A stretch of DNA of 48,461 nt from the IMG/VR virus record IMGVR_UViG_2778261094_000010, positions 1 through 48,461 of that record; one strand, written 5' to 3'. This document shows positions 17,875-38,350 of this stretch, piece by piece (position 1 is the first letter of the stretch; every line of letters starts with the position of its first letter). Source of the DNA: a virus (Duplodnaviria > Heunggongvirae > Uroviricota > Caudoviricetes). Under the pieces are notes generated by a model. The model was not told where the DNA came from, made no database searches, and saw only the letters and a program-made list of their open reading frames with translations. Both the position numbers and the translations under genes were made by a program.

Positions 17875-18611
17875 TTAAAGCGAGCGAATACCAACGCTGA
17901 CCAGATGTTCAGACAGATCCGGCTCCGGTTCACCGCCATTGACCAGCATCCGGCTCATTGCTGTAAACATCGCAACAGGGCCGTCGATTTTGGCTTCCGG
18001 CGTGGATTTATTCGGGAAGATATTGTCGTTTTTGTCCGGTTTTACCGTAACGTTAGACATCATCCAGTTCATGACCGGATGATTGCTGTGGTGGAAACGC
18101 CCGGCATAGACCAGTGATTCCGTTTCCTTCATGGCCTCTGACAGATTGCGGACCGTCTGCGGAACTTCCACCAGCGGTATACCTTCTTCAGTCAGCGCCA
18201 GACTGAACTGCATTGCGCTCCACGGGTCAAATCCCAGTTCCCTCAGGTTTTCACCGCCAATCCATTCCAGTAGGTCACTTTTGATCTGAGCATGATCGAT
18301 AACATCACCATCCGTCAGGATGAGCTTACCCATCTCCGCCCACTTCCGGTAAAGTTCTGCCTGCTGCCGTGAGCATCGTTCCAGCCGTCCTTCCGGAAGC
18401 CAGAATTTAAAATCGGCATGAACATGCCCGTTATCCGTTCGCCAGAGTTTTGCCGCCGCACAGATATCAATCTTATGAGCAAGGTCGACGCCGACCCACA
18501 TGGGATATGTTTTCAGCTCATGCTGTGGAGCAATGTATTCGCACTTCTCCCACTTAATCATGTCCATCCAGGCAGACTCTGCTGTTACCCACACATTCAT
18601 GTGTTTGGTAA
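17875..18611 (-). pseudogene. terL: Helper prophage terminase large subunit, C-terminal nuclease-domain fragment (3' half of a terL split by the satellite)
   Basis: Translation NVWVTAESAW...WVGVDLAHKID...KIDGPVAMFTAM aligns with the C-terminal nuclease domain of the intact satellite TerL (NIWCQGATPW...AGLDLSSTSD...KIDPSVAALMAF); the reading frame runs up to the 7-bp core at 18605..18611. Confidence 0.8.
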
Positions 18612-18620
18612 GAATATTTC
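18601..18620. repeat. Left attachment junction (attL-like): exact 7-bp core TTGGTAA at 18605..18611 plus imperfect flanking match
   Basis: TTGGTAAgAAtATT here versus TTGGTAAaAAaATT at 33522..33535; marks the boundary between the terL C-fragment and satellite DNA. Confidence 0.65.
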
Positions 18621-18894
18621 AAGTTTTTTAAAATCACCTGTATATCAATCGTTTAACATGAAAAAACAGTCTTTATAAATCATCAAGCAATACACAGCGC
18701 AATACACGTATCTGTATTGTTTTAATGCTGATACACACCGTTTTTTGATACAGTGATTCGACCTACCATCGCGAAGCATTTTTTATTTCTTGTGTGTAAC
18801 AATCTGACGAGGTGAGCACTCAAAGAGATAAGAGGCAGTAGAAATTTCGATCACCCCCCTGAATGCAATTTTTCGTATATATATACAAAACAGC

Positions 18895-19047
18895 GCGGGT
18901 TATGCGGGTTAGCGGGTTATCTTCGCGTGCTAAGTATTTTTTGCTCTTTAATATCAATGCGTTAAAAAACAACGTATTTAAATATCAGCCAGAATGTAAC
19001 CCGCAAGACATTCAAAATAACCCGCACCCCTCCCTCAAATAACCCGC
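18895..19047. repeat. Iteron cluster B: 3 tandem GCGGGTTA(T/G) repeats, AT-rich spacer, 3 inverted (A)TAACCCGC copies
   Basis: Direct copies at 18895..18920, inverted copies at 18997..19004, 19017..19025 and 19039..19047, preceded by a TATATATATA tract; same repeat unit as the cluster downstream of the replication gene. Confidence 0.7.
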
Positions 19048-19128
19048 AAAAACATCCCTGAAAGTGGGTACCGGTAATACTGAAAATTTATTCCATTAAA
19101 TGAGCATTGTCCTCTCTCATCCATTCCG

Positions 19129-20790
19129 TTACACACCATCAAACGCCGCAAGCCGCTCTTTGTGGCTGTCGCTCATATCGAATGCAAATTCCTCATGCTC
19201 TGCCTGGAATGTGCCAAACGCCATCAGCGCCGCAACGCTCGGGTCTATCTTGTTGGATGATTTTTTCTTGTTCGGCTTGATATTGGCGTTCGCGTCACTC
19301 TGCATCACAACATTACTCATTGACCAGGCCAGCACCGGATCGCCACGATGCACAATCACCTTCCGGTTAACAAAAACTTCGAACGATTTCGCCGCCGGAC
19401 TGAAACGAAGGTATGTTTGCGGGAACGGCTCCACCTCAAATCCTGCCCCCTGTAGCTGCGTCCTCAGGTGCGTGGCGTTCCATGTATCGAAGCCCACCAG
19501 CCTGATATTGAAATTCTCTGCATCCGCCATGATGTCATCACGGATACGGTCATAATCAATGCAGTCACCCGGTGTTGTGCGTATCCAGCCCGCCTTTACC
19601 CACTGGCGATAGATGGCGCGGTTTTTATTGGCGGGGTTCTGTAGCTGAAATTCAGGCAGATAGTGACGGGAAACCAGCATAATCTTTTTACCGACCGGAA
19701 AGGCATAGCACACGCTGGAAATATCGCTGGTTGATGATAAGTCCAGCCCCGCGTAGCACTCCTGCCCGTATAAATCCGCCTCCGCGAACGTTCCGGCGCA
19801 CTCCGCCCATGCACCGTTACCCATCCACGGCGTAGCCCCCTGACACCAGATATTGAATCGCTTGGTGAGCATTTCCACCCACTGCGACGGAATACCCCGC
19901 GCTTTCTGGATGGTTGAGGCCAGTTTTTCACGATCGACGGAAACATCGATATTGGGATTCGCCTTTATCCACATCGCCGGATCGTCAACCTCGCTTTCAT
20001 CATCCAGCTCGTAAATCAGCACGAACATGGATTCGTTCACCTCTTCACCATCCAGTATCTGGCAGCAATAGTCATAGTGTTGTTTACAGGCTGAAACAAC
20101 GTTGCTCCCCGATGTGGTGATGGCAAATAACAGCCCCTCCGGACGCGCCCCCATTCCCAGTTCAAGCGCGGAATAAACCCCGTTGTCAGGGTGCAGGTGA
20201 TATTCATCCACAATGGCAAGGCTCGGGTTTGTACCTTCAATGGTTGCCGCTTTTGCTGCCAGTGGCTTTAACAGGCTGTTGGTTTTCGGGTGTATCACCT
20301 TGTGTGCCTGAATATTTACCCGCTTTCGTAACGGTCGGGATAAAAGGCACATCTGACGCGCATCATCAAACACGATCCGCGCCTGATCACGACTCACGGC
20401 GGCGGTGTAAATATCCTGCTGCCCGTTTTCCATAACCAGAAACCAGTTAGCCAGGATAGCGGCGACCGTGGATTTGGCATTTTTTCGCGGCACTTCAATG
20501 AATGCGCTGGTGTATTTGCGCCGTCCGGTGGCCTTAACCTTAAAGCCCAGGATGCACGCAAAGGCGAACTGCTGCCACGGCTCCAGCTCAATGGGGCTAC
20601 CGCGCATTGCGCCTTTTACGTGCGGACACACCCTGGAAAAGGCAATAAACCGCTCCACGACCTCCGGATCGAACGTGTAAAGGGGGTTTTCAAGGTCAGA
20701 AAAATACCGTTTAACGGCCTGTTTCAGTCGTTTACAGGCCGTAATTTTGCCGTTTTTTACGCCTTCTGCGTACTCATGCCAGGCGGTCAA
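19129..20790 (-). CDS. terL: Satellite terminase large subunit (intact)
   Basis: 553 aa with N-terminal ATPase and C-terminal nuclease domain (AGLDLSSTSD, KIDPSVAALMAF); apparent TTG start at 20788..20790 overlapping the TerS stop, preceded by a GAGGAAGAGGA ribosome-binding site. Confidence 0.9.
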   Translation of the reverse strand: MTAWHEYAEGVKNGKITACKRLKQAVKRYFSDLENPLYTFDPEVVERFIAFSRVCPHVKGAMRGSPIELEPWQQFAFACILGFKVKATGRRKYTSAFIEVPRKNAKSTVAAILANWFLVMENGQQDIYTAAVSRDQARIVFDDARQMCLLSRPLRKRVNIQAHKVIHPKTNSLLKPLAAKAATIEGTNPSLAIVDEYHLHPDNGVYSALELGMGARPEGLLFAITTSGSNVVSACKQHYDYCCQILDGEEVNESMFVLIYELDDESEVDDPAMWIKANPNIDVSVDREKLASTIQKARGIPSQWVEMLTKRFNIWCQGATPWMGNGAWAECAGTFAEADLYGQECYAGLDLSSTSDISSVCYAFPVGKKIMLVSRHYLPEFQLQNPANKNRAIYRQWVKAGWIRTTPGDCIDYDRIRDDIMADAENFNIRLVGFDTWNATHLRTQLQGAGFEVEPFPQTYLRFSPAAKSFEVFVNRKVIVHRGDPVLAWSMSNVVMQSDANANIKPNKKKSSNKIDPSVAALMAFGTFQAEHEEFAFDMSDSHKERLAAFDGV

Positions 20791-21130
20791 GCTCGTCCTC
20801 TTCCTCTGTTTCCGGTGGATTTCTGCGGCGACTTACCGGGTCAAAACCCAGCAAAGAAGCCATTTTGATCATTATTCTTTCAGCGTCAGCCTTTGCGCTC
20901 AGGGCGGGGTTTCTGCTCTCGCTGCCCTGACTGTTAACAATGCTGAACCCGCGCGTGGCAAGGTCTTCGACGGCTTTGCGGTATATGGAGTAGTTAACAC
21001 AATACAGCTCCAGATTGCTCCAGTCGGCGGGGGTAAGGTCTTCCCGTCCGGAAAGCTGGCGCGATTTTTCCTTCCACTGCCTGACCGCGATTTCATCCAG
21101 GTAAGCGGGGGCTTTTGGTGGTCTTGCCAT
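20774..21130 (-). CDS. terS: Satellite terminase small subunit (P27-like family)
   Basis: Translation from MARPPKAPAYLDEIAVRQW resembles P27-family small terminases; start assigned to the ATG at 21130. Confidence 0.8.
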   Translation of the reverse strand: MARPPKAPAYLDEIAVRQWKEKSRQLSGREDLTPADWSNLELYCVNYSIYRKAVEDLATRGFSIVNSQGSESRNPALSAKADAERIMIKMASLLGFDPVSRRRNPPETEEEDELDRLA

Positions 21131-21418
21131 GTTCTTTTTTCGCCCAATTATTTTCAAAAAAATTCCCGTGCACAAAAATTTGAGGAGGCGGTCGGTGTCC
21201 GGCAGGGACGGTTTCGTCCTGAAAACCACCCCCACCCCCTCTGACGGCCTCACCAGCGATTGCGAAAACATTCCATGACCTCGCGGTCACGGTCGGTTAA
21301 TCACTTCGCTGTGGTGCGTTTTGTGCGCCCTGTCCTGTTGGCTTTGTGCCCTGTCTCCTGTGTCTTCCATAAGTCACGCTGCCTTATCAGTCCACGTATC
21401 AGCCTGGTTTGCTCCTGT

Positions 21419-21859
21419 TCAGTCATCATCGCCATACATCCAGTCGTTACGGTGTGCTGCCCGTTCTTCCTGCTCGCGATACATGCCCGCCTTACGGTTC
21501 GCTTTCGTGGCTGGATCTTCCCGTGTCGTCTTACGGTTGTGGCACGTCTGGCACAATGCCTGGTGGTTCCACTCAGGCCAGAAGAGAACATCACCGCCGC
21601 CATTGATGGGGATGATGTGATCCACCACAAGAGCTGGCGTATAAATCCCCTTAGCCAGACAACGCACGCATAACGGGTTTTTGCTCAGGTACAGGGCGCG
21701 GTATTTGTCCCACTGTCGGGAATACCCGCGCGCGCGGCGGTGTCCCCGTCTGGCATCCTCTGCACGCCATGCAGCCCGTCTGTGCTCTTCACACTTGCCG
21801 GACTTCACGCGCTTATTACAGCCCGGCTCAGTGCATCGCCTTAATGGTTGCCACGGCAT
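21419..21859 (-). CDS. HNH endonuclease (terminase-associated)
   Basis: Cys-rich zinc-finger motifs (CNKRVKSGKCEEH, CVRC, CQTCH) and HNH-like His/Asn; located upstream of terS-terL as in HK97-like packaging modules. Confidence 0.85.
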   Translation of the reverse strand: MPWQPLRRCTEPGCNKRVKSGKCEEHRRAAWRAEDARRGHRRARGYSRQWDKYRALYLSKNPLCVRCLAKGIYTPALVVDHIIPINGGGDVLFWPEWNHQALCQTCHNRKTTREDPATKANRKAGMYREQEERAAHRNDWMYGDDD

Positions 21860-22161
21860 CAGTACACCCCCACATCACGATAAACCGACCAGAGCGCAGA
21901 AATAGCCATAGGCAGTTCAGACTGCTCCACTGGTGAAACTGCTTCCCTGTTCTCGTACAGGAAAGCGATGTACATCAGGCAACCAACACGCATTGCCGGG
22001 GTAAATTCCAGCCCGTCTTCAAAACGTTTCCCGATATGCTTCTGGCAGGCTTCCAGCGCCGCATCGGTATACATTTTCAGAAGTTCGCCTTCACCGGATA
22101 AATCATCATCAAGTCGAAGATGTGCCCTGACTTCATCAGGTGTAATTCTGGCTTCACTCAT
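21859..22161 (-). CDS. Satellite head-tail connector protein (gp6-like)
   Basis: Translation from MSEARITPDEVRAHLRLDDDL parallels the helper gp6-like protein (MLLKEEEIKSHLRLDD); GGGAGA ribosome-binding site before the ATG at 22161. Confidence 0.7.
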   Translation of the reverse strand: MSEARITPDEVRAHLRLDDDLSGEGELLKMYTDAALEACQKHIGKRFEDGLEFTPAMRVGCLMYIAFLYENREAVSPVEQSELPMAISALWSVYRDVGVY

Positions 22162-23368
22162 CTTTTCTCCCTTTAATTTCCACAGTCTGTTTCCATGCCT
22201 GGCTGAACTCATCACCACCTTCACGCGGCGGCATACCCTCGCGTTCGCGAGCTTCGTTCGGATTCATGATCCCGCTCTTAATCCCTTTCTCATACGTGGC
22301 ATAACGTTCGGTGGGTGTGGCGCGCAGTAAATCGGCTGAATCAAACTCAACCAGATAACGGGTACCAGGTACGGGAGAAGTCACCAGCAAAGCGGCCTTG
22401 ATTTGCTGTTCGAAGTTCGCCAGCCACGGGCGCATTGTCATGGTCAGAAATGCGCGGCTCGCCTCACTGAAATTGCTGTAGGTGCTGTTGCTGTATTCCT
22501 GAAGAAAAATCGGCGACACGTTGAACATCCTGGCGATGTCTTCAATGGAGAAGCGACGGGAGGCCAGCCATTCCGCATCCTGGTTACTCATCCCCAGCTG
22601 CCTGTAATCCATGCCCCCTTCAAGGATTGGCGTTTTTCCGGCATTTTTCGCCCCCTTGTAGCGTTCCAGTGCGTCTAATGCCTGTTTACCTTTCACGCCG
22701 TCCAGCCATTCACCTGACGTGATAATCCCTGCCGCCATCATGCCATCTTTCATAATGCTGGCTCCGTGACGCTGTTGAGCAAGGCCAAGCCCCAGCGCCT
22801 CACGGCAAATCGTGACGGGGGAACGCCCCAGAAAGCCATCATCCGAGGCATAGCGGAGATGCAGAACTTCTTCCTGTAAATACGTGCGCACCGTTCCTGT
22901 ACAGGGTTCGGTGATGGTATAGCGGTATTTGTGTGTGCCTGTGCGTTCCGGTACAACACACCCCGGCGCATAAGGATGAAGTGATTTTGGCTGCCCGTCC
23001 CGCCCCCACTCAATAACCGCATAGGCGTTACCGTTCAGCAGGCAGTGACGCATCATTGTGCGTTTAAACTGGTAAGGTGTCAGGCACGAATTAGGCTGCT
23101 CATTCAGCAGAATATCTACCGGGTGACTGTCCAGCCATTCCCGCGCCTCTCTGCCCTTATCATTGCGTACCAGATACAGGTAACACGGCATCGTGGCCAC
23201 CGCCTCAGCGATGACAGAAACCGCGTTCATCACAGCAGGCAATGATTCAGCCGTCCCGGCAGAAACATATTCTCCGGATCCGGTATTTGGTACACCAGAC
23301 AACGCCAGAAAATCATCAATGGACAGGTTACGCAGATCGCTTTTTTTACGACTAAAAGGCCACCACAT
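22154..23368 (-). CDS. Satellite portal protein (HK97 family)
   Basis: Portal-like sequence; start assigned to the ATG at 23368 (MWWPFSRKK), one nt after the protease stop. Confidence 0.85.
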   Translation of the reverse strand: MWWPFSRKKSDLRNLSIDDFLALSGVPNTGSGEYVSAGTAESLPAVMNAVSVIAEAVATMPCYLYLVRNDKGREAREWLDSHPVDILLNEQPNSCLTPYQFKRTMMRHCLLNGNAYAVIEWGRDGQPKSLHPYAPGCVVPERTGTHKYRYTITEPCTGTVRTYLQEEVLHLRYASDDGFLGRSPVTICREALGLGLAQQRHGASIMKDGMMAAGIITSGEWLDGVKGKQALDALERYKGAKNAGKTPILEGGMDYRQLGMSNQDAEWLASRRFSIEDIARMFNVSPIFLQEYSNSTYSNFSEASRAFLTMTMRPWLANFEQQIKAALLVTSPVPGTRYLVEFDSADLLRATPTERYATYEKGIKSGIMNPNEAREREGMPPREGGDEFSQAWKQTVEIKGRKDE

Positions 23369-23369
23369 A

Positions 23370-23930
23370 TCACAACCCCGCCAGTTCAGCCCAGCGATGA
23401 CGATTATTTCCTGCCGGGCGTAATTCAGGGTACTGTGCAAACAACGAACGGTGGGCAATCTCCACGCCGGATTCGGGATAAGCAGGCATCGATGTTATCG
23501 TGATTTCACGGAGTTCTGCGGCGGTTACAGTACGCAGATACGGTTTTTGCGCGATATTCCACTCCTCGCATAATGCGCGAAAGCCAAAGCTCATTCCTGT
23601 AATATCGCCACGTTCCACCAGCGTAAGCACATCTTTTCCAAGCTGGGTATTTGGCGGTGTCAGTTCAAAACGTAGCCCGGTGTTATCCTCAGTCAGTACC
23701 AGTGAGCCGGATTTGGTACGCCCCAGCAGTTGGGTATAGTCATGCTCATACAGACAGCGCACATCATTACCCGCCGCCAGATAGTCAGCAAAAGCCCCCG
23801 GCGTGAACTGTTCGCGAAACTCGTCCCAGATAATTTCTGAAAGGCTGTTCCAGCGAACGGCATAACCCACCAGTTTTTTATCGCTGGCGGTCAGTTCAGA
23901 TGTACGGATTTCAAAATCGGTGTTTTTCAT
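23370..23930 (-). CDS. Satellite prohead protease (HK97 family)
   Basis: Translation from MKNTDFEIRTSELTASDKKLVGYAVRWN with conserved His/Ser regions (YEHD, GMSFGF); GGAG ribosome-binding site before the ATG at 23930. Confidence 0.85.
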   Translation of the reverse strand: MKNTDFEIRTSELTASDKKLVGYAVRWNSLSEIIWDEFREQFTPGAFADYLAAGNDVRCLYEHDYTQLLGRTKSGSLVLTEDNTGLRFELTPPNTQLGKDVLTLVERGDITGMSFGFRALCEEWNIAQKPYLRTVTAAELREITITSMPAYPESGVEIAHRSLFAQYPELRPAGNNRHRWAELAGL

Positions 23931-23979
23931 CGGTGTACTCCATAAAGCTGAAAAAGGAGGCCGAAGCCCCCTTTGCTCA

Positions 23980-25125
23980 TTACTTGCCAGCCTGAATTTC
24001 CAGAATCTTGATGGCGTTCGAATCCACCACACCACCGCCCAGATATTTCTGGGTATAGATGTTAATGAATCCAGGCTCGCTGAAATCCGGACGGGTACGC
24101 GTACCGGTTTTATGGTCAACGATGAAATAACCGCGCTTAAAGTCACCGACTGCAATCACACCGTCCGGCATAAATTCCAGATATTCAACCGGAAGCCCCA
24201 GCAGAGAATCAGGATCACCAGCCTGTAAACGATCGCGCCAGATGTAATCACCAGTGGCATTTTTCAGTTTTTGTGCGGAGGCGGCTGTATTTGAGTTCAT
24301 CACCCATACAGCTTTTTTGCGGTACTTATTGCGCAGCGTAAATTTCAGGTCAATCAGCATATCGGCGCTGAGACTGCCAGTCACTTTTTTCGTCTGGAGC
24401 GTACCGAAAGGACGGGTTTTGTCATTATCCGTAGTGCGCGGGAAAGTCAGGAAACCTTTGGCTTTTTTCTCGCCATCACCGGAAACCAGATCCGTTTCTT
24501 CGGTATCAACGAAAGTGTCGCCAATTTCAGAAGATAACCAGCCCATAATATCGACTTCGGAAAAATCGATAATTTCCTGAGTGGTTTTCGGGTAAGCGTA
24601 GATCGGATACAGGCGGATACTGACTTCATTCAGTTTTGGGGTTGCCGTCTGGTTACGTGCCGCACCTTCTTCGCCGTGTCCCACGACCGCACCCCCGGCA
24701 GAAACCAGTTGCTTAAATTCATTACTGTGAATGGTTTTAACAGTACAGATTTTACGCATCACCGACTCATCAGAAAGCTGACGCATAATTTCTCTGTTCA
24801 GTTCCGGGATAACCGTATAACCACCATCAGCCGGAACACTGCCGGACAGGTTGCGGGTTTCCCCGGTCAGAATGTAAGAGCGTAGCTCGTCTTTGGTGAT
24901 TTTATCTTCGACGGGAACACCAGGCTGGTTACGTTCTTCATCAGCCACAGACTCGAGGCGGGAAATTTCTGTGTCGAGGGAATCGGCTTTTGCACGCAGT
25001 TCATCAAACTGTTTGCCCTCGTCATCGGTTAGACTGCGGTTTTCACTGTCGGCTTTTTCCAGCAGGGATCGCATCTGGTTTTTCAGGGCGGTTTTTTGCT
25101 GGCGGAGTTCGATTAATTTCTTCAT
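23980..25125 (-). CDS. Satellite major capsid protein (HK97 fold)
   Basis: 381 aa; N-terminal coiled-coil delta-like domain followed by an HK97 core (ADGGYTVIPEL); homologous in outline to the helper capsid protein but clearly diverged. Confidence 0.9.
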   Translation of the reverse strand: MKKLIELRQQKTALKNQMRSLLEKADSENRSLTDDEGKQFDELRAKADSLDTEISRLESVADEERNQPGVPVEDKITKDELRSYILTGETRNLSGSVPADGGYTVIPELNREIMRQLSDESVMRKICTVKTIHSNEFKQLVSAGGAVVGHGEEGAARNQTATPKLNEVSIRLYPIYAYPKTTQEIIDFSEVDIMGWLSSEIGDTFVDTEETDLVSGDGEKKAKGFLTFPRTTDNDKTRPFGTLQTKKVTGSLSADMLIDLKFTLRNKYRKKAVWVMNSNTAASAQKLKNATGDYIWRDRLQAGDPDSLLGLPVEYLEFMPDGVIAVGDFKRGYFIVDHKTGTRTRPDFSEPGFINIYTQKYLGGGVVDSNAIKILEIQAGK

Positions 25126-25360
25126 GAAGGTTTTCTCGCATTGGTTAAGATTCAGGACGTGAAACCAACACGGGGGGAGCGCCGCCCGACACTCTCGGCA
25201 TCTCGCAGATCAACCCGGCATCGCGCAGGGGGTCAGGCGGCATTGTGGCGGCTCACGTCTGAGTGCCACACGCCAACATATACATAAAAATCAGTATGTA
25301 AACATCAGCCAGAATCACCGAACAACCTGGAACAACCACGAACAAATAATTTACAAAACC

Positions 25361-25396
25361 TGAAAAAAGGCCCGGAAAAAATCCGGGCCTTTATCG
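25361..25396 (-). terminator. Rho-independent terminator (bidirectional hairpin GGCCCGG-N7-CCGGGCC flanked by A and T runs)
   Basis: Perfect 7-bp stem with A6 upstream and T-rich downstream, immediately 3' of the minus-strand gene ending at 25399. Confidence 0.7.
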
Positions 25397-25398
25397 CT

Positions 25399-25647
25399 TT
25401 ATTGTTTCACTGGCTCCCGCATTCTGCGTCTTATTTTCCACAAATATTCGATCATCGCTTCCACCTGCTCACGGTTGGTTGCGAAAATTTCCCCGGTCAG
25501 TGAGCTACGCAGAAAATCATGATGATCCACAAAAAATAACGCATCGGAAGAAAGCAACCGACGATATTTTTTTGCTGTCGTGGTTTCCAGATCATCAAAA
25601 CCATGAAGCTTTTTATGTTGCTGAACTTCTTCAAATGTCACTGGCAT
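25399..25647 (-). CDS. Hypothetical satellite protein
   Basis: 82 aa ORF overlapping the upstream gene end and followed by a terminator; no recognisable motif. Confidence 0.4.
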   Translation of the reverse strand: MPVTFEEVQQHKKLHGFDDLETTTAKKYRRLLSSDALFFVDHHDFLRSSLTGEIFATNREQVEAMIEYLWKIRRRMREPVKQ

Positions 25648-26180
25648 GTATCCCCCTTTGCTGCCCGGCGCTGGCGCTTGTGCTTCTCATTCAGCACCAT
25701 CAGCCGTGTTTCTGCCTCCTGCTGTTCCTGTGGTGTCACTTCCCCACATGGCTGGCCTTTCAGGTCGTAACGTGCGCCACCAGCTATCAGGGCGCGGTAA
25801 TAGCGCGGAGACTGCGCATAGGATGCCAGCGTCGCACGTAATACCCCCGACCCGAATGCCAGCCCCCTGACGGCGATATCCTGCATCAGGTCGTCGAATA
25901 TCCCCACCTTAAGCGGCTTCGGTGCTTTATGGCTGAATAAGTCAGGCCACATCTCAGTGAGGCGGTTAACGCGTCGGCGGTTTTTGCGCTGCCTTTTGGT
26001 CATATGCTGCCACGGTGTCGCCCCTGCGGTCTTCTGTTTGCGGCTCTGCTGTGCGTTCTGATTATCGGGTATCACTTTATGCGCCGATGTGGTTTTATCC
26101 TGCTCTTGCGCCGCCTGCGTCGTTTTCTGCGGCGTGCCGTAAATGCCTTTCGGCTTCCGGTTAATGGTCAGCGTTGTCAT
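25638..26180 (-). CDS. ProQ/FinO-family RNA-binding protein (putative RNA chaperone)
   Basis: Basic N-terminus, then a FinO/ProQ-like core (PLKVGIFDDL...RYDLKG). Confidence 0.55.
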   Translation of the reverse strand: MTTLTINRKPKGIYGTPQKTTQAAQEQDKTTSAHKVIPDNQNAQQSRKQKTAGATPWQHMTKRQRKNRRRVNRLTEMWPDLFSHKAPKPLKVGIFDDLMQDIAVRGLAFGSGVLRATLASYAQSPRYYRALIAGGARYDLKGQPCGEVTPQEQQEAETRLMVLNEKHKRQRRAAKGDTCQ

Positions 26181-26216
26181 GCCTTCCCCCGTAATTACTC
26201 TGTTCGCTGTTGTGAA

Positions 26217-26642
26217 TTAAAACGGTATGTTATCCCCGTACGGGTCATCGTGCTGGCTTGTCTGTTGTTTTGCCCTGTTCAGTGCGTCAGTGGCCTGGCC
26301 CTGTTGACCTTTTTTGCCGCCCGGTCGCGCCGTTCGCGCACTGATTACGCTGTCTGCAATAACCTGCCAGCCCTGCCGCGTTTCCCCGTTCTGGCCTGTC
26401 CACTGGCTCACCTGCATGTTACCCGCCACGCTCACCAGTTCGCCTTTGTGGTGTTTTGCCAGTGCGTCGGCCTGTCTGCCAAACGCCAGGACAGATAACC
26501 ACATCGTCGCCGTTCCGTCATCTGCCTGGCTGCACGGCAGGGGAACCGCCATACTCGCCATCGCCATTTGTGTCCCTTTGCTGGTGGTCTTTAACTGCGG
26601 GTCAGCCACCAGCCGCCCGTAAGCCGCTATCTGTGCTGTCAT
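26217..26642 (-). CDS. ssb: Single-stranded DNA-binding protein (SSB)
   Basis: OB-fold-like N-terminal region, Gly/Gln-rich linker and an acidic C-terminal tail ending DDPYGDNIPF (compare the canonical SSB DDDIPF tail). Confidence 0.7.
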   Translation of the reverse strand: MTAQIAAYGRLVADPQLKTTSKGTQMAMASMAVPLPCSQADDGTATMWLSVLAFGRQADALAKHHKGELVSVAGNMQVSQWTGQNGETRQGWQVIADSVISARTARPGGKKGQQGQATDALNRAKQQTSQHDDPYGDNIPF

Positions 26643-26706
26643 GCTGTCTGTTCTCCGGTTTTAACGTTGATTGTTACGCTTGTTTACACCCTTACGGTGA
26701 AATTCT

Positions 26707-26829
26707 GCGGGTTATAATCGCACTTTTGCGGGTTATAACTGCCGTTTTGCGGGTTACGTGCGGGTTATTGATTTCCTTTTTATTCATACAGTTAATGCAC
26801 TTATACACAGGATAACCCGCATAACCCGC
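26707..26829. repeat. Iteron cluster A (putative satellite replication origin): 4 direct GCGGGTTA(T/C) repeats, AT-rich spacer, 2 inverted ATAACCCGC copies
   Basis: Direct copies at 26707..26715, 26728..26736, 26749..26757 and 26760..26768; inverted copies at 26812..26829; located just downstream of the replication protein gene. Confidence 0.7.
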
Positions 26830-26852
26830 AACTTTTTACATCACACAGGGGG

Positions 26853-28976
26853 TTAATCTTCTGCCTCAGGCTGGAACATCAGCACGTAAAAAACATGCTG
26901 CTTCCCCCCAATTTTGCTGAGCGCCTTTTTCTTGTAACGGCGGTCGTTCCCCTTTTCCAGCATCCCCGCCGCATCAAGCGCTCTTGCAAAATGCGACGGG
27001 TTAAATCCCTGTGCGATCTCACCTTCAAACACATGCGGGAACGTGTAAAAACGGAACTCGTCATCTTCGTTTCTGATACTCCCCTTTCTGTATCCGGCAA
27101 GTTCTTTAATCGGTAAATCACGCTCGTCGGTGTTGGGCCACGGAAGGTATCTGCTGAATCCGAACGACGCTAAAAAAGCCTCTGCCTGTTCAACCATCTG
27201 TTTAAATTCCCTGTTACCCGTGCCGAACTCCTTCACCCAGGCATTAAAATTATGCTGTATGGCATCGCGGCACGCCTGAACATCCCAGCCAGTAATATGA
27301 CCGGACAACACTAACGCCGCCTCAAGCATGGCAAATCGCTCCCCCACACGGTGAACCTGTTCGCCGTAGCTCTCCGGTATCAGGTTGCGCCACCGTTCAC
27401 GGCATGCCCTTACCGTGTCCTTTGCTTCCTGCTGGTGGTTTGCCAGCCATTTAACCCACTCTCGACCCGCCGCCCCGTGATTTTCTGTCCAGGCATCCTT
27501 TAACGCGTCTGCGTGCGCCTTTCCGGTGCTGTATTCGTGAAACTGCGTGGCTTTTTCCATCGGCACGTTAAGCAGGCGGACAAGCTGCCCCGCCTTGACT
27601 TTTATCCCCTCCGTTTTGAGGAATGTTTCAACGTCCATTTCTCCGGTGCTGATTGCCACCGTGCGCCAGTGTTTGATCTCCCTGTTGCCGCCGTCCTTCG
27701 CCCCCTGTAATTTCCCCGAACCGTTAAACAGCGTATAGGCTGACGTGGACACCTCCCGCGCGTTTCCGGCCTGACCTATTTCATCCAGGGGTAACAGCCC
27801 ATCATTATGTGCTTCGGCCTCGTTGGCGATACCTAACGCCGTGCCGTACCAGGTCAGCCGTTGTGCGTCCGGCTCTCCCCATAAACTGGATGCGATGTTC
27901 TGTGTGGTGGTTTTCCCTGCCGATGACTGTTCGAAAAGATGTACCCCGAAGCCGTCAGCCCCCACCAGCCCGATTAATGGTGCGGATAACGATACCGCCA
28001 CACCCAGCATCATGGACGGATTACCACCAGCCAGCCGCGCCACGGTATCGCGCCAACCCTCCGCCGTTCCTGCCACGGAATAGCCATTAACAGCAGCCGT
28101 TTTTCCGGTAAACAGGGCTGGCTTTTCGCAATCACCAATGACCGAACCGTCCGGCATGATGTACGCGCCAAAATGCCAGCCCGTTGTTGTGCTTAACTGC
28201 CATTCCTCATGGCTTCCGCTTAACTGCATCCAGTCAGCCAGGATAGCCCTGTATTTGCCGTTAGTTGTTACGTTCAGTCCGTGGTCTTTCAGCAGCCGCC
28301 AGCCGTCACGGTCGCCAATGCCACCGCACGGAACCGCCATTGTGATGACTTCATGGTTTGCTAATTTTTTCCAGCGCATCACGCGGTAATGCTCTTTACC
28401 GATTGTCCCCGTTCCCAGTAGTTCAAGCGGGGAACATAACCACGTCTCAGGCCGGATAATTTCGCCTGACTGCTTATCCACTTTTGGCGTTACCCAGAAA
28501 ACACCATCGGCGCGACTTTCAACGCGGGGCTTTAATTCATCATCGCCCTGGCTTTCTGTAATTTTTTTCTTTAAAGGCAACACCAGACTTTCCCCGCGCT
28601 CGTATTCGTCTTTGAGGCGAGGCAACTGGTCGGATAAATCCGCCGGGCTGGTGTCAGTTATACCCGCGTATTCGTATACGGTCTTCACGCCAGCCACAGC
28701 CAGCAACGTGACGATCTGTGTAAGGCTACGTTCAGTGATGTGCCCTGCGCGGTAAACACGCACACACTGACGGCTATCATCAATAATTTGATAACCGGTA
28801 ATATCTTTCAGGTGTTCATCTGACAGAACGACAGGTGGCACATTGTCGGCGGCAATATGCTTACCTGCCCATTCCTGCCACTCTTTCGCATGGCTCCACG
28901 CATCACTACCCGCAAAGATGATAACCTCCGTCATTTTGTCGGCTGGCTGGTGCTTTAAGTTTGGTGCGCGCTTCAT
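26853..28976 (-). CDS. Replication protein, DUF927-type primase/helicase (P4 alpha-like or PICI Rep-like) with Walker A motif
   Basis: 707 aa; Walker A-like SSAGKTT within a DUF927-like helicase core; adjacent iteron cluster; ATGA-type overlap with the upstream ORF. Confidence 0.75.
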   Translation of the reverse strand: MKRAPNLKHQPADKMTEVIIFAGSDAWSHAKEWQEWAGKHIAADNVPPVVLSDEHLKDITGYQIIDDSRQCVRVYRAGHITERSLTQIVTLLAVAGVKTVYEYAGITDTSPADLSDQLPRLKDEYERGESLVLPLKKKITESQGDDELKPRVESRADGVFWVTPKVDKQSGEIIRPETWLCSPLELLGTGTIGKEHYRVMRWKKLANHEVITMAVPCGGIGDRDGWRLLKDHGLNVTTNGKYRAILADWMQLSGSHEEWQLSTTTGWHFGAYIMPDGSVIGDCEKPALFTGKTAAVNGYSVAGTAEGWRDTVARLAGGNPSMMLGVAVSLSAPLIGLVGADGFGVHLFEQSSAGKTTTQNIASSLWGEPDAQRLTWYGTALGIANEAEAHNDGLLPLDEIGQAGNAREVSTSAYTLFNGSGKLQGAKDGGNREIKHWRTVAISTGEMDVETFLKTEGIKVKAGQLVRLLNVPMEKATQFHEYSTGKAHADALKDAWTENHGAAGREWVKWLANHQQEAKDTVRACRERWRNLIPESYGEQVHRVGERFAMLEAALVLSGHITGWDVQACRDAIQHNFNAWVKEFGTGNREFKQMVEQAEAFLASFGFSRYLPWPNTDERDLPIKELAGYRKGSIRNEDDEFRFYTFPHVFEGEIAQGFNPSHFARALDAAGMLEKGNDRRYKKKALSKIGGKQHVFYVLMFQPEAED

Positions 28977-29287
28977 TTTGCCTTTCCCCGTTCACGAATA
29001 ATTTCACGTACTGCCTTAATGCGTTCCATTCCTGTAACGCGCATGATTCTGTCGATGTCGCTTAATTCTGCTGGTGGTGCTTTGCTTACCAGGGGGAACT
29101 CCCTTTCAAAGCGCATATGCGACGACACGCAGGGATGCGCATAACCTTCGCGGATATAGGTCACGCGAAAATCATCGACGGTTTTAATCGTTATCGTGCT
29201 GCCGTATTTATCCCGGAAAATATCGCCGGGGCGGATTTCAGGCCGAGCGTGACCGCTGGCAGTAAAGCCAGAATTTTTCTTTTTCAT
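28973..29287 (-). CDS. Hypothetical satellite protein
   Basis: Start assigned to the ATG at 29287 (MKKKNSGF); translationally coupled to the replication gene. Confidence 0.4.
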   Translation of the reverse strand: MKKKNSGFTASGHARPEIRPGDIFRDKYGSTITIKTVDDFRVTYIREGYAHPCVSSHMRFEREFPLVSKAPPAELSDIDRIMRVTGMERIKAVREIIRERGKAK

Positions 29288-29294
29288 GTTTTTT

Positions 29295-29543
29295 TTACTC
29301 CAGAGGCAGCTTTTTAGCGGCGAGCTCAATATCAGATGTCAGAGAAACCTGTGTATTTGCCAGGTCTAACAACAAAGAAATAAGAATTTCTTCTCTGCTA
29401 TCGGATTTATCGGTGCTAAGGCTGTTCATCCACATATTGACGACTTCCCTGATTTTTTTCGCAGAGTGCAGGGCTTCAAATGCCAGGCCTTCAATATCAT
29501 GTTTATTTCGCATAATCGCCCCCGCCATTTTCACAATCAGCAA
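29295..29543 (-). CDS. Hypothetical satellite protein
   Basis: 82 aa ORF in the early operon; no recognisable motif. Confidence 0.35.
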   Translation of the reverse strand: MLIVKMAGAIMRNKHDIEGLAFEALHSAKKIREVVNMWMNSLSTDKSDSREEILISLLLDLANTQVSLTSDIELAAKKLPLE

Positions 29544-29748
29544 TCAGGATGGCTTTTGCCTCATTCAGCGCCATATCAGCACTAAATTGCATAAGAGCCA
29601 GTGAGTGAGGAACGAAAGCCCCGGTATATTCTGTTTCGCTGGTGGCGTGCTTATGCGCCTTGTCTGCGATAACAGAAATATCAATCAGCGCGTGCATCAG
29701 CGTTTTGATGGCTTCGGCGGCTGCGTCCGGTGTGGTTTTATTATGCAT
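29503..29748 (-). CDS. Hypothetical satellite protein
   Basis: 81 aa ORF in the early operon; no recognisable motif. Confidence 0.35.
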   Translation of the reverse strand: MHNKTTPDAAAEAIKTLMHALIDISVIADKAHKHATSETEYTGAFVPHSLALMQFSADMALNEAKAILIADCENGGGDYAK

Positions 29749-29944
29749 AGGTTTCCCCCTGGCGAATACGGGCGGCGAATACCATCACGCAGCCATCAGG
29801 AGATTGCTGACGCGCTTCCTGTTCGCTGGTGGCCTCAATGGTAATCACGCGCGGTTGTGCCGTGCTCAGGGCGATAAAACGCCAGATGTATTTATTCAGG
29901 TTGTACGAGTCCCGCCCTTGCGGGTGTCTGGTATAATTTCTCAT
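29741..29944 (-). CDS. Hypothetical small protein, first gene of the minus-strand early operon
   Basis: 67-codon ORF (MRNYTRHPQGRDSYNL...) with a GAGG ribosome-binding site, transcribed divergently from the operator region. The listed 349-aa ORF is treated as a read-through artefact. Confidence 0.4.
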   Translation of the reverse strand: MRNYTRHPQGRDSYNLNKYIWRFIALSTAQPRVITIEATSEQEARQQSPDGCVMVFAARIRQGETYA

Positions 29945-30041
29945 AGCTACCTCGATACGCTTTCTATCGTTGGTGGTTAGAAGCCCGGTTAGTGTTAGCG
30001 CACTGCCGGGTTTCGTCGTTTCTGCACCTTGCATCAGTAAG

Positions 30042-30093
30042 GTGTTGAACACCAATTTAAGCCCTGGTGTTAAACACGTCAAGTGTTGAACAC
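30042..30093. promoter_or_regulatory. Operator-like triple palindrome GTGTT(G/A)AACAC in a divergent promoter region
   Basis: Near-palindromic 11-mers at 30042..30052, 30067..30077 and 30083..30093, between the minus-strand early operon and the plus-strand small regulator gene. Confidence 0.6.
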
Positions 30094-30143
30094 TTATTTT
30101 TTTTCCTGCATACTGCATTTGTTTTTTGTAAGGGGTACACAAC

Positions 30144-30323
30144 ATGGCAACAAAAGCAGTAAACGCAAAATCACAAACAGTTGCGGCAAGGGTTCCGCAT
30201 GAAGTTATGAACAATGTTGAGGCGGTAAAAATGCCTGGTGAAAGTACAGGGCAGTTTGTAACAGCAGCATTAAAGCGAGAAGTTGAATACCGCCAGCGTC
30301 GCAAGGCCAAAGAGCAGGAATAA
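30144..30323 (+). CDS. Small putative DNA-binding regulator (59 aa)
   Basis: ATG at 30144 preceded by an AAGGGG ribosome-binding site, immediately downstream of the operator palindromes; small basic protein with a KREVEYRQRRKAKEQE tail. Confidence 0.5.
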   Translation: MATKAVNAKSQTVAARVPHEVMNNVEAVKMPGESTGQFVTAALKREVEYRQRRKAKEQE

Positions 30324-30380
30324 CCATCACCAGCGCCGTGGTGTAAGGTATTACGGCGCATTGCTATGCAGGACAACACA

Positions 30381-30554
30381 ATGACCGATAAAGAATTGAC
30401 CAAAACATTATCACCGACACGGAAAAGACGGCGCAGAAAGATAGAGCATGAATCAGAAAGATTCGCACCTTGTTCGTTTGCTCTTGAGAAATTCCTTAAA
30501 GAGCGCAGGAAAAAACTCTCGTTGCAAACCTTGGAACGAACCAAATCTGACTGA
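30381..30554 (+). CDS. Hypothetical small basic protein
   Basis: 57-codon ORF (MTDKELTKTLSPTRKRRRRK...) with an AGGA ribosome-binding site, followed by tandem terminators. Confidence 0.3.
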   Translation: MTDKELTKTLSPTRKRRRRKIEHESERFAPCSFALEKFLKERRKKLSLQTLERTKSD

Positions 30555-30620
30555 TCACATTGCCCACCAGCCGCAAATGTGGCATTGTTGGTGATGCTTT
30601 TGTTTTCCCTTGTTCCCACT

Positions 30621-30650
30621 GGCGACCCTTTTGCGGTCGCCTTTGTTTTG
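30621..30650 (+). terminator. Rho-independent terminator (GGCGACC-CTTTTGC-GGTCGCC followed by TTTGTTTTG)
   Basis: Perfect 7-bp stem followed by a T tract, downstream of the plus-strand small ORFs. Confidence 0.7.
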
Positions 30651-30745
30651 CCTGTTATCCTGCAACTATGGTCATTTCGACCACGGTTGATATAATCCCC
30701 CCGCACAGATTCATTTTTTGCGCAGTAGGTTAATTGTTCGCAAGG

Positions 30746-30780
30746 GCGCTCCGGTAACGGGGCGCTTTTTGTTTTTACCC
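30746..30780 (+). terminator. Rho-independent terminator (8-bp stem with GTAA tetraloop followed by TTTTTGTTTTT)
   Basis: GCGCTCCG-GTAA-CGGGGCGC hairpin (one G-U pair) followed by a T-rich run; second of two tandem terminators. Confidence 0.65.
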
Positions 30781-30934
30781 ACCAGCACAATAAAAATCTT
30801 CATTTTCCATTTTTGTAAAATTTCATGCTTTCCGGACGACTGGTAATATGTCATTTTTTAGCAGAAGATTTTGCCTTGCTGGTGGGTAGCTTCCCGGTCA
30901 ACACGATGTACCGTATAATCAACACCGCGTGTGG

Positions 30935-31531
30935 TTACTGAATACGCTCACCAAAGTAAAACTCAGGCTGGTATTCACGTATCAGCCTTTTTTCTTCTTC
31001 CTCCAGTTCACGCTTTTTGCGCTTACATGCCTGTAGCTCCCTCCCCTTCTCGCTGGCACTTATCTGGTATTGCTCTTTGCGGCGGGAAAAATCCTGTAAT
31101 GCTCCCCACGGGATACCATAAGCCCCCGTTTTTCTGATACCCGGTATCACATTTCTGAATACCCAATTACTGAAACGATGGGCGAACGTGCCAGGATTAA
31201 CAGCTTTGCGACTTCTGGCGATCAACTTGTAAAAACCTGATTCTGATACAACATTCCAACTTCTGGCACCACCACGCTTACCTGAATGACCCTCGGTTAA
31301 AGCTAGGGTCATTACCTCATCGCTATCCAGAACTGAAACAGCATCGGTAACGTTGCTAATTTCCAGCGCCGCACACACATCAGCGCCAACAAACCACGGA
31401 TCGCCGTTCAGATACACCACGCGAACGTTCACACTATCAAAGCGCAGAACGACCAGATCACGAATATCACAGAATTTTTTCACATGACGTGCGTCACCCT
31501 TGCCCGTCGCGGCAATATTTTTATTCATCAC
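30935..31531 (-). CDS. Bro-N domain protein (antirepressor-like)
   Basis: Bro-N signature (FDSVNVRVVYLNGDPWFVGADVCAALEI...SGFYKLIARSRK) with a Lys/Glu-rich coiled C-terminus. Confidence 0.7.
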   Translation of the reverse strand: MMNKNIAATGKGDARHVKKFCDIRDLVVLRFDSVNVRVVYLNGDPWFVGADVCAALEISNVTDAVSVLDSDEVMTLALTEGHSGKRGGARSWNVVSESGFYKLIARSRKAVNPGTFAHRFSNWVFRNVIPGIRKTGAYGIPWGALQDFSRRKEQYQISASEKGRELQACKRKKRELEEEEKRLIREYQPEFYFGERIQ

Positions 31532-31585
31532 TTTCTACCTCACATACAAAAAACCCCGCATTGCGTGGTGCGGGGTTGTCGGTAA

Positions 31586-31864
31586 TTACTTATTGGCGTT
31601 TTTGTATGGGCTGTTTACTTCCTTTACTCCTGGCGGATGCATAACCCACCAGAGCACATCAGAGAGCAACCAGGAAACAGACACTTTCCCTAAATGAGCA
31701 CGAGCAGGAAATGCTCCCTCCTGTTCAAGTACCCAACGTCTGCTTCTTGAAAGCCCGGTACGATTGGCACACTCATGTTCGCGTATACGGCGATCATACG
31801 GTTCGCCATGTTCTTTCAGAATCTGAATGCGTTCTTCGGGTGTAGGATAAATAAATTTTTGCAT
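31586..31864 (-). CDS. AlpA-like helix-turn-helix regulator (second copy)
   Basis: Translation from MQKFIYPTPEERIQILKEHGE with an AlpA-type C-terminal helix-turn-helix (TGLSRSRRWVLEQEGAFPARAHLGKVSVSWLLSDVLWW). Confidence 0.5.
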   Translation of the reverse strand: MQKFIYPTPEERIQILKEHGEPYDRRIREHECANRTGLSRSRRWVLEQEGAFPARAHLGKVSVSWLLSDVLWWVMHPPGVKEVNSPYKNANK

Positions 31865-31927
31865 AAAAATATCACCTATAAAAAAACCCGCCAAAAGACG
31901 GGTTGATTATATCTCATTTAATTTAGT

Positions 31928-32161
31928 TCAGGGTTTCCATTCACCCTTTACCCATTCCAGCACCTCAGATAAGCGCCAGACTTTTGTTTGTGGGCCAATA
32001 CATATTTTCCGTGGAAATTTTCCTTCCTTTTCAAGTAATGCTCTGTGTCTCCTGCCAAGAGCTGTTAACCATGCACATTCATCTTCCTTAATCATCCTGT
32101 CGATTGTTTTATCATTTTCAAGTTCTTCACGCGTAACTATTTCAATCATTACCGTCACCAC
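31928..32161 (-). CDS. alpA: AlpA-family transcriptional regulator / excisionase-like protein
   Basis: 77 aa with AlpA-like helix-turn-helix (LTALGRRHRALLEKEGKFPRKICIGPQTKVWRLSEVLEWV); immediately downstream of and overlapping the integrase gene. Confidence 0.75.
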   Translation of the reverse strand: MVTVMIEIVTREELENDKTIDRMIKEDECAWLTALGRRHRALLEKEGKFPRKICIGPQTKVWRLSEVLEWVKGEWKP

Positions 32162-33350
32162 TAATTAGCTTATTCAGATAGTCGTACCACCAGTTCATAG
32201 CTTCTTTTTTTCTGTCCATATACTGACTTCTGTTATAAACCCCGGCAACACCGCCTAATGTGTGCCCAAGCAACTGTTCAACCACATTATGTTCAAAACC
32301 ATGATCACTTAGCTTTGTGGCAAACACTCTTCGCATATCATGCGCCGTCCATTTTTCCGAGTGTTTCATCCTTTTCCATGTCTTACCGATAGTTACGCTT
32401 GCCGTACACTGACGCATATCAAACCCAATCACATTTTCTTTGTTACCTGTTATTTTTTTTAACGTAACTAACCAGTTAAACATGCCATCAGGAATCGGTC
32501 TGATTATTTCCCTGCCATTTTTGCTATGATCAGCGGGAACGCGCCATAATTTCTTATCAAAATCCCACTCTACCCAGGACGACAGTAATACTTCTGACAG
32601 TCGACAACCAAAAACTACCAGGAAACGTAAAATAATTCGGTTTTCATATGATAATTCGTGATTGTCATAATCAGTATTAATACTTCGCCATAAATCTCTG
32701 ATTTCATCATCTGTTAAAACCCTGCTTCTTCGCGCAGACTTTTTTCCCACATCACAGACCTCAAGATCATCAATTTCATGACTAATCGCGTATTTTCTTA
32801 CCCTACAAAATTTAAGCGCCTGTTTTGATATACGCAACAAAGCTCCGGCCTGTACAGGTGCTACTTTTTTTATTTTGTCAAAACACTTGATCCACATAGA
32901 TATAGAGCAATCACTAAGTGGTACATGACCAATCACCGGATAAATATGTTTACCAAAGCACTGCCTGATATGTTCTGCTCCCCTACGCTTATCCATTGCA
33001 TAATTATCAAGCCAGTATTCAAGTGCCTCACGAACGGTAACAGGTTGCAAGGTGGCTTCCCGTTCAATTTTTATCTGAATCCGTGGATCTCTGCCCTCCG
33101 CAAGCCAGGTTCGACACTGATCGCGCATCTCTCTCGCTGATTTGAGACTCAGATCAGGATATTTTCCAAGTGTCAGCCAGATGGGCGCGGTTCCCCTTCC
33201 CGCCAGTCTGTAAAAGAAAACAAAACTAACACATCCGTATTTACTGACCCGTACCGAAAGCCCGTTACCATCAGCGATGGTTTCCTGCCTCTCACTCCTG
33301 CGCCCAAGCAGGGAACGAAGTTTTTTATCGCTCAGTTTGTTTAGCGCCAT
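32142..33350 (-). CDS. int: Tyrosine integrase (P4-type site-specific recombinase)
   Basis: C-terminal catalytic motifs (HDMRRVFAT, LLGH, GVYNRSQY); start assigned to the ATG at 33350 (MALNKLSDKKL); lies about 170 bp from the right junction core. Confidence 0.9.
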   Translation of the reverse strand: MALNKLSDKKLRSLLGRRSERQETIADGNGLSVRVSKYGCVSFVFFYRLAGRGTAPIWLTLGKYPDLSLKSAREMRDQCRTWLAEGRDPRIQIKIEREATLQPVTVREALEYWLDNYAMDKRRGAEHIRQCFGKHIYPVIGHVPLSDCSISMWIKCFDKIKKVAPVQAGALLRISKQALKFCRVRKYAISHEIDDLEVCDVGKKSARRSRVLTDDEIRDLWRSINTDYDNHELSYENRIILRFLVVFGCRLSEVLLSSWVEWDFDKKLWRVPADHSKNGREIIRPIPDGMFNWLVTLKKITGNKENVIGFDMRQCTASVTIGKTWKRMKHSEKWTAHDMRRVFATKLSDHGFEHNVVEQLLGHTLGGVAGVYNRSQYMDRKKEAMNWWYDYLNKLISGDGND

Positions 33351-33517
33351 GTGATTTATAACCCGTTTTTGCAATACACAGTGCAATACACAAATGATGA
33401 AAACAGCCAGAACCTTCCAGAAAAAACAAAAACGACGAACAAGAAAAAATCTTTTTCTTTCATTTGGTTACTAAAAAAATCAGGACAGGTCGCACTGTTG
33501 TTACGGCGTGATGTTAC

Positions 33518-33537
33518 TTTCTTGGTAAAAAAATTCA
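33518..33537. repeat. Right attachment junction (attR-like): exact 7-bp core TTGGTAA at 33522..33528 plus imperfect flanking match
   Basis: Direct repeat of the 18605..18611 core; boundary between satellite DNA (integrase side) and the helper terL N-terminal fragment. Confidence 0.65.
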
Positions 33538-37339: not shown

Positions 37340-37426
37340 ACTTCCTCCTGAAAATAAAAAAGGGCCACCAGCGACCCGTAAAAAAACACCCCGTCAAAGG
37401 CATCCGCAGATGCCTTTTGTGTGATG

Positions 37427-38001: not shown

Positions 38002-38176
38002 CGTGACTTTTCCTTTTAGTGGGTGAGCCTGCGCCCGGGGGTGACCAGCCCACAGAGAAAGTCACACTGACCATCCCGTAAGCTCACCCCTGAAAGGCTC
38101 TGTGGTTTTTTGATGTGCGCCGGGCGTGGCGCGGATATGAAAAAGGCCCGCCGAAGCGAGCCTGGAAAAATAAGCG

Positions 38177-38253: not shown

Positions 38254-38266
38254 AGGGTACAGATAA

Positions 38267-38343: not shown

Positions 38344-38350
38344 TATGTGA

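Follow-up and report, generated by a model that had tools for sequence, protein, structure and literature searches.

Integration of a satellite with a capsid-forming gene set into the large-terminase gene of a lambdoid-regulated prophage: a further member of the A:Terminase_1:246 group of HE-PICIs

Introduction

The helper-embedded PICIs (HE-PICIs) were described by Tommasini, Mageeney & Williams (2023, NAR Genom Bioinform 5:lqad036, PMC10111431) as a set of 491 satellites which share one integrase clade and are distributed over 14 sites, all of them in cognates of nine late genes of lambda. Their diagnostic attP feature is a doubled motif, tgTGTATTGCantgTGTATTGCa, whose two co-oriented copies flank the attP centre at a distance of 81+/-2 bp on the upstream side and 132+/-2 bp on the downstream side (PMC10111431). 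Supplementary File 1 of that paper lists an E. coli 15-kb group, A_Terminase_1_246, with the att identity 'ttaccaa', and gives Eco33.15.A_Terminase_1_246 as the element of E. coli 042 (FN554766.1/2250958-2235714).

The founding HE-PICI, Eco567.11capE, resides in the lambda-like capsid gene E of prophage 50icd (PMC10111431). Following mitomycin C treatment, the composite element excises, then replicates, and the satellite subsequently excises precisely; no virions were recovered from this model lysogen (PMC10111431). This capsid-site element is the only one for which excision was measured in that work.

The cf-PICIs (Alqurainy et al. 2023 Cell Host Microbe; He et al. 2025 bioRxiv 10.1101/2025.02.11.637232) constitute a second related class, whose operational definition fits the satellite analysed here. 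The described cf-PICIs are regarded as chromosomally integrated islands, whereas our satellite is located inside the terL gene of its presumed helper. Capsids holding only satellite DNA have been reported in the published work on cf-PICIs.

Further parallels are the 'phage regulatory switches', i.e. the skin element in sigK and phi10403S in comK (Feiner et al. 2015). They resemble the terL case in that an element splits a coding gene and precise site-specific excision rebuilds the ORF at a defined moment. They differ from it in the owner of the split gene, which in the terL case is another mobile element (a prophage), and in the party presumed to benefit, which in the terL case is the satellite and not the bacterium.

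In the present study we analysed a 48,461-nt stretch of DNA (referred to as the window), in which such a satellite divides the large-terminase gene of a prophage.

Results

The sequence-only reading of this DNA had reported an exact 7-bp core, TTGGTAA, at two positions of the window (18605-18611 and 33522-33528), with imperfectly matching arms, and had proposed that joining the helper sequences across this core would rebuild terL. The core was found at both positions, and these are its only two copies on the + strand of the window. The 7-mer by itself is not beyond chance (a 48-kb sequence should contain approximately 3 copies on each strand, and 2 were observed on the + strand and 6 on the - strand), so that its significance rests on the reconstruction of attB (300/300) and of terL (1756/1758 nt), as detailed below. 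The arms, for their part, do not match: outside the core the attL and attR sites are equal at 10/40 and 9/40 positions, i.e. at chance level, which is to be expected for attL versus attR. The interval singled out in that reading, 18597-18625, does contain a real attL, but attL only, whereas the feature requires both junctions.

The predicted junctions are …AATTTTTTTACCAAACACATG… for the attB of terL and …GATGTTACTTTCTTGGTAAGAATATTTCAAG… for the attP of the satellite. Joining of window[..18611] to window[33529..] produced a single 585-aa minus-strand ORF (34549 down to 17875) that reads through the joint in frame (...SARVNFFTKHMNVWVTAESAW...), in agreement with the initial claim. The gapless alignment that had been claimed between this helper segment and the corresponding part of the satellite TerL (VEMLTKRFNIWCQGATPW / (V)EMLTKRFNIWCQGATPW) was also recovered, within a TerL alignment of 32% identity. 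The rebuilt protein contains a TerL_ATPase domain (residues 112-268) and a TerL_nuclease domain (residues 283-563), and the core spans codons Phe341-Thr342-Lys343 in the N-terminal part of the latter. T342 falls at approximately position 61 of the current TerL_nuclease profile; judging from the agreement with the coordinates of E. coli 042, the core most probably corresponds to position 246 of the Terminase_1 profile.

In its interrupted form, terL is represented by a 397-aa ORF (34549 to 33356, minus strand), which contains the 5' part of the gene, and by a 241-aa ORF (18600 to 17875, minus strand), which contains the 3' part. The equivalent of the 5' fragment in E. coli 042 is labelled 'terminase large subunit, missing C-terminus' in RefSeq, and the 3' fragment is annotated in relatives as 'terminase TerL endonuclease subunit, missing N-terminus'. 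The minus-strand ATG that opens the 3' fragment (18598-18600) is the native Met345 codon, two codons past the core, and for this reason annotation pipelines call a separate 'TerL endonuclease subunit'. Independent expression of the 3' fragment from this ATG was considered and rejected, since no Shine-Dalgarno-like sequence was seen in the satellite-derived DNA upstream of it. The coordinates of all these features are listed in Table 1.

Table 1. Features of the interrupted terL locus and of the embedded satellite (positions are those of the window).
Feature	Position	Strand	Remarks
attL core	18605..18611	.	TTGGTAA on +, TTACCAA in gene orientation; same identity block as in the A_Terminase_1_246 group of PMC10111431
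attR core	33522..33528	.	TTGGTAA
Embedded satellite	18612..33521	-	14,910 bp; HE-PICI, site group A:Terminase_1:246; capsid-forming PICI gene set
Helper terL, 5' fragment	33522..34549	-	codons 1-343; ATPase domain and first ~60 nuclease-domain residues
Helper terL, 3' fragment	17875..18611	-	rest of nuclease domain, codons ~342-585
Helper small terminase	34549..35031	-	
attP int-proximal arm	33356..33521	-	read as 56-codon tail of the truncated terL frame; stop 33358-33356
Doubled HE-PICI attP motif, TGTGTATTGCACTGTGTATTGCA	33370..33392	-	0 mismatches; starts 133 bp downstream of core centre
Second doubled attP motif, CGTGTATTGCGCTGTGTATTGCT	18686..18708	-	3 mismatches, at weakly conserved positions; ends 78 bp upstream of core centre
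Tyrosine integrase	32142..33350	-	402 aa; Arm-DNA-bind_3 and Phage_integrase; ATG at 33350
AlpA-family regulator / excisionase candidate	31586..31894	-	PF05930
Bro-N / anti-repressor-like protein (Bro zone)	30935..31531	-	
DUF927 primase-type replication protein	26853..28976	-	
SSB	26217..26642	-	
HK97-type major capsid protein, satellite	23980..25125	-	36% identical to helper capsid
Prohead protease (S78), satellite	23370..24155	-	start probably overcalled
Portal, satellite	22154..23458	-	32% identical to helper portal
gp6-like head-tail connector, satellite	21859..22224	-	30% identical to helper connector
HNH endonuclease, satellite	21419..21859	-	
Small terminase (P27 / Terminase_4), satellite	20774..21271	-	
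Large terminase, satellite	19129..20790	-	553 aa; cognate site TCACCAA, one core mismatch

A search for the predicted attB and attP, as proposed in the sequence-only reading, gave different outcomes for the two sites: attB was recovered from genomes and from free phages, but the attP joint was recovered neither from IMG/VR nor from JGI metagenome contigs. The 300-bp in-silico attB is 100% identical (300/300) to sequences of six complete E. coli genomes. It is present uninterrupted in ~905 of the 5426 complete E. coli genomes, always within a gene annotated as terminase large subunit, as well as in the free phages vB_EcoM-606R7, vB_EcoS-733R4, phi467 and Evi and, more distantly, in mEp235; empty-site terL genes carrying the predicted junction therefore exist in related phages and genomes, and the refuting outcome named in the sequence-only reading, a lack of any such gene, did not occur. 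In E. coli UTME-13, the uninterrupted terL is identical to the rebuilt gene at 585/585 aa and 1756/1758 nt positions. Over ~22.5 kb, the window helper and the late half of the UTME-13 prophage share 99.5-99.7% identity, in two alignment blocks that meet at the core, and the two are essentially one prophage late region with and without the insert.

The helper has the gene order HNH-terS-terL-portal-protease-capsid and carries a contractile tail (sheath, tube, tape measure, baseplate); lambdoid Q-type late regulation was seen in its relatives. Its early/regulatory half (37388-48461) does not match the UTME-13 prophage, except for a 1.9-kb block of 97.7% identity. This is ordinary lambdoid mosaicism, in which one late module, with or without the satellite, is paired with different early regions. 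Three tRNA genes are located at 38177-38426 (minus strand) and adjoin a DNA methyltransferase gene (38476-39525); they specify Arg-tct, Arg-tcg and a CAT-anticodon tRNA (Met according to ARAGORN; annotated as tRNA-Ile in relatives in RefSeq).

Comparison with the described HE-PICIs revealed close agreement. The published identity block 'ttaccaa' is the reverse complement of the window core, and the attL and attR queries match the E. coli 042 chromosome at ~2235717 and ~2250961, i.e. at the coordinates of the published element. The window satellite lies inside a prophage late gene (terL is split at 18611/33522) and is co-oriented with it, all satellite core genes and helper late genes being encoded on the minus strand. 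Both copies of the doubled attP motif are likewise on this strand, at -78 and +133 bp, close to the published 81+/-2 and 132+/-2 bp; the 1-3 bp difference in the upstream spacing depends on which base of the motif is taken as the reference. The four ordered zones of HE-PICIs, namely integration (int, alpA), Bro, replication and late, were all recognized, and the window integrase, judged by its sequence, would belong to the HE-PICI clade, in a subclade that fits the site group.

The element of E. coli 042 shares with the window satellite the target gene, the codon, the 7-bp block, the size of ~15 kb, the integrase (99.3% identical at the nucleotide level), the doubled attP motif at the same spacing, and an orientation that follows that of the late operon. 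Nothing essential differs between the two; the window satellite carries the DUF927 primase and a ProQ/FinO gene, and the truncated terL frame (terL') stops 5 nt before int in the window, whereas it is fused to int in 042. The listing of the A_Terminase_1_246 group, the match to 042 in coordinates and integrase, and the attP motif together indicate that the window holds a member of this described group. The site, the core and the type of element were thus already published in 2023, and the window is a further instance, not a discovery.

The founding element 11capE also has much in common with the window satellite: both lie within a late gene of the helper and in its orientation, both carry a homologue of the interrupted gene, and they share the integrase clade and the attP motif. 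11capE differs in its target (capsid rather than terL), in its 10-bp identity block and in its size of 11 kb. Furthermore, it has no terS and is presumed to use the cos packaging machinery of the helper, whereas the window satellite has its own complete head and packaging module.

The occupied site proved to be recurrent. Among the 5426 complete E. coli genomes searched, attL was found full-length in 34 and attR in 36, with arms 96-100% identical, in strains from pigs, poultry, cattle, humans, produce and water (including E. coli 042 and UMNF18). The int gene is present in 36/5426 of these genomes, the same number as attR, and it adjoins the junction wherever coordinates were compared; no integrase copies at off-target sites or elsewhere in the chromosome were seen in the complete E. 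coli genomes. Likewise, all close relatives of the integrase in IMG/VR (17/17) are situated immediately downstream of a terL 5' fragment, i.e. in the integrated (attR) state, and none was in the attP form.

Two core alleles, TTACCAA and TCACGAA (in gene orientation), were identified at occupied sites, and three, TTACCAA, TCACAAA (phi467, L024) and TCACCAA (mEp235, L025), in unoccupied terL genes; all of them are synonymous for Phe-Thr-Lys. Strain 06-00048 (L002) carries the variant TCACGAA (TTCGTGA on the opposite strand) at both attL and attR (~4735-4741 and ~20145-20151), which localizes the crossover to these 7 bp. Such matching cores at both junctions are the product that would be expected of a tyrosine recombinase requiring identity of the overlap. 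Polymorphism of the core was also noted at loci L004, L005, L014, L015 and L016, and could reflect co-variation, or escape, between the helper attB and the satellite attP. The empty sites, the matched core alleles and a full-length integrase with an intact catalytic signature all speak for the precise insertion by a tyrosine recombinase that had been postulated for this locus.

Several related loci depart from this pattern. E. coli GF31 (NZ_CP172152.1) and TUM1881 (NZ_CP128979.1) contain attR and int without a full-length attL match, and in Z1324SEC0014 (NZ_CM135183.1) attL and the best attR hit are ~0.9 Mb apart and on opposite strands; these three may carry truncated satellites or rearrangements between prophages. 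At another locus (L020, 2644-4230), a 71-aa 5' fragment of what resembles a lambda-type portal gene is directly followed by an integrase of 68% identity, which is preceded by the same doubled motif. A gpA-type terminase gene and a gpW-like gene (assignments made by eye on the translations) lie upstream of the portal fragment, and the element looks like an HE-PICI that occupies another late gene.

The int-proximal arm of attP extends the interrupted terL frame, whose stop codon is placed 5 nt before the ATG of int. Each of the other two frames of this arm contains four stops, and only 2-6% of shuffled attP arms keep the frame open. The terL'-int junction was compared at 20 loci (the window, L001-L002 and 17 IMG/VR loci). 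In 5 of the 20, i.e. in E. coli 042 and at four IMG/VR loci (taken together, L001, L007, L012, L013 and L018), the terL' frame is fused in frame to int by a 1-nt difference, and at locus L016 the terL' tail contains an early stop. Fusions of this type were regarded as annotation problems in PMC10111431.

The satellite genes are arranged in the order int, alpA, Bro-N, DUF4222, DUF927 primase, SSB, ProQ/FinO, capsid, protease, portal, connector, HNH, terS, terL. The traits of the cf-PICIs are evident in this set: (i) the size of the element falls within 10-18 kb, and int, AlpA, Bro-N, a DUF927 primase and SSB are present; (ii) the genes from capsid to terL follow the diagnostic cf-PICI packaging order, with only one gp6-like connector/adaptor gene detected; and (iii) no lysis genes and no complete tail module are present in the scanned ORFs. 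Pfam or PHROGs scans of the larger ORFs (80 aa or more) revealed no tail or holin families in the satellite, and tail and lysis genes are likewise missing from what RefSeq annotates in the 042 and 06-00048 relatives. As a cf-PICI, the satellite would be predicted to assemble small capsids of its own, which package only satellite DNA and are completed with helper tails.

The head and packaging proteins of the satellite are only 26-36% identical to those of the helper (TerS 26% over 104 aa), and thus are not recent copies of them. Self-integration into the satellite's own terL would be disfavoured, since its cognate site, TCACCAA, has divergent flanks. Between the SSB and capsid genes lies a gene for a ProQ/FinO-family RNA-binding protein (25638-26180, minus strand); in the relative from E. 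coli 042 this position is taken by a PerC-family regulator. The replication gene also differs among the satellites of relatives, some of which carry the DUF927 primase and others a RepA helicase. PADLOC gave no hits for defence systems among the satellite accessory genes.

A 349-aa ORF in the Bro/immunity zone (29741-30790, minus strand, TTG start) was considered as a novel accessory protein and discarded. A match to a phage transcriptional-repressor family is confined to its residues ~259-345, and several small genes (Icd-like, YlcI/YnfO) are annotated in this place in relatives, so that it is probably an overcalled mechanical ORF.

Discussion

The most probable interpretation, to which we assign a probability of roughly 85%, is that a capsid-forming satellite has been inserted by its own tyrosine integrase into terL codons 341-343 of a lambdoid-regulated, contractile-tailed prophage, whose packaging depends on excision of the satellite. 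The split of terL is precise to 7 bp, the regenerated gene encodes a product identical to that of an uninterrupted allele, the integrase occurs only at this site, the attP carries the doubled motif of the family, and the recombination genes are intact. The dependence of packaging on excision follows the model published for HE-PICIs (PMC10111431), which we infer to apply to the terL group as well.

With the satellite in place, the helper would be left with TerL in two pieces, one with the ATPase only and the other a remnant of the nuclease, and would consequently be unable to package its own DNA. After induction, the composite element would excise and replicate, and Q-antiterminated late transcription of the helper would read into the co-oriented int-alpA genes. 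Int and AlpA would then recombine attL with attR, releasing a circular satellite and restoring terL. As terL would be restored only by excision, packaging of the helper is proposed to be delayed until that moment. The satellite would package itself, with its own TerS and TerL, into its own capsids; what it would draw from the helper is chiefly neck and tail parts and lysis. The order of these events and the read-through transcription are extrapolated from a different HE-PICI site group.

A coincidental 7-bp repeat, combined with a terL split by misassembly or by homologous recombination between two terL genes, could in principle produce a similar picture, given that a 7-mer is expected about three times per strand in 48 kb and that two homologous terL genes lie less than 15 kb apart. 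This explanation is refuted by the exact reconstruction (300/300 for attB in six genomes, 585/585 aa for terL) and by the recurrence of the same junctions in 34-36 independent complete genomes, to which 17 IMG/VR contigs can be added; moreover, the two terL genes have diverged too far to recombine homologously, and that of the satellite is intact. It is also improbable, though far less decisively so, that the locus is a relic of a single integration into an ancestral prophage, now inherited vertically with a defective prophage and incapable of excision or switching. Such a history would account for the high similarity of the occupied-site arms, for the decay suggested by the two of 36 genomes (GF31 and TUM1881) without a full attL, and for the model lysogen of PMC10111431 that yielded no virions. 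It would also agree with the absence of the attP joint from the public contig sets: an exact 28-mer and a degenerate 22-mer gave no match in IMG/VR, and a degenerate 28-mer covering both core alleles gave none in JGI metagenome contigs. These negative results weigh little, since only exact matches could be detected by the scans and an excised form is short-lived. Among deposited phage genomes no copy of the satellite was found, but only ~75%-identical capsid/portal segments of other elements. On the other hand, the difference of only 2/1758 nt between the rebuilt terL and the uninterrupted allele, within a late region of 99.5-99.7% identity, points to a recent insertion or excision. The helpers of these satellites differ in their flanks, core alleles and early regions, and the satellites themselves vary in content (DUF927 primase versus RepA helicase), while Int, AlpA and the packaging genes have remained intact and conserved. 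Excision has, furthermore, been measured in a sister site group (PMC10111431).

Functional replacement, in which the satellite terS and terL would serve as a 'backup copy' that packages helper DNA and the interruption of terL would have no consequence for helper packaging, seems to us even less probable than a relic. In its favour, HNH, terS and terL are all present in the satellite and are of the helper's HK97/P27 type. Against it stands the low identity of the satellite proteins to those of the helper (TerL only 32%, TerS only 26% over 104 aa); in established terminase biology, the choice of the DNA to be packaged is made by TerS. Although the backup idea was raised for captured late genes in PMC10111431, it also sits poorly with the published cf-PICI capsids, which hold satellite DNA only. 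Insertion of a capsid-forming satellite, followed by excision-dependent packaging of the helper, is therefore the reading that we retain.

A more speculative extension, which we consider doubtful, is that the satellite is wired to its helper not only transcriptionally but also translationally, with terL ribosomes being delivered to int through the open terL' frame, and that terL represents a targeted parasitic choice of site. Since the arms are nearly identical across loci, the open frame argues only weakly for translational coupling of int to a helper late gene. If such coupling were real, excision would fire only once the helper commits itself to late expression. Given that heads and terminase would be supplied by the satellite itself for its own use, a terL knockout would block packaging of the helper while leaving the tail supply intact, and terL would then be a targeted site rather than an arbitrary late-gene target.

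The arrangement could be recovered from the raw sequence alone, without tools. What it comprises is a parasite of a phage parked in that phage's own DNA-packaging gene and, as proposed here, the phage would not be able to package its DNA until the parasite leaves.
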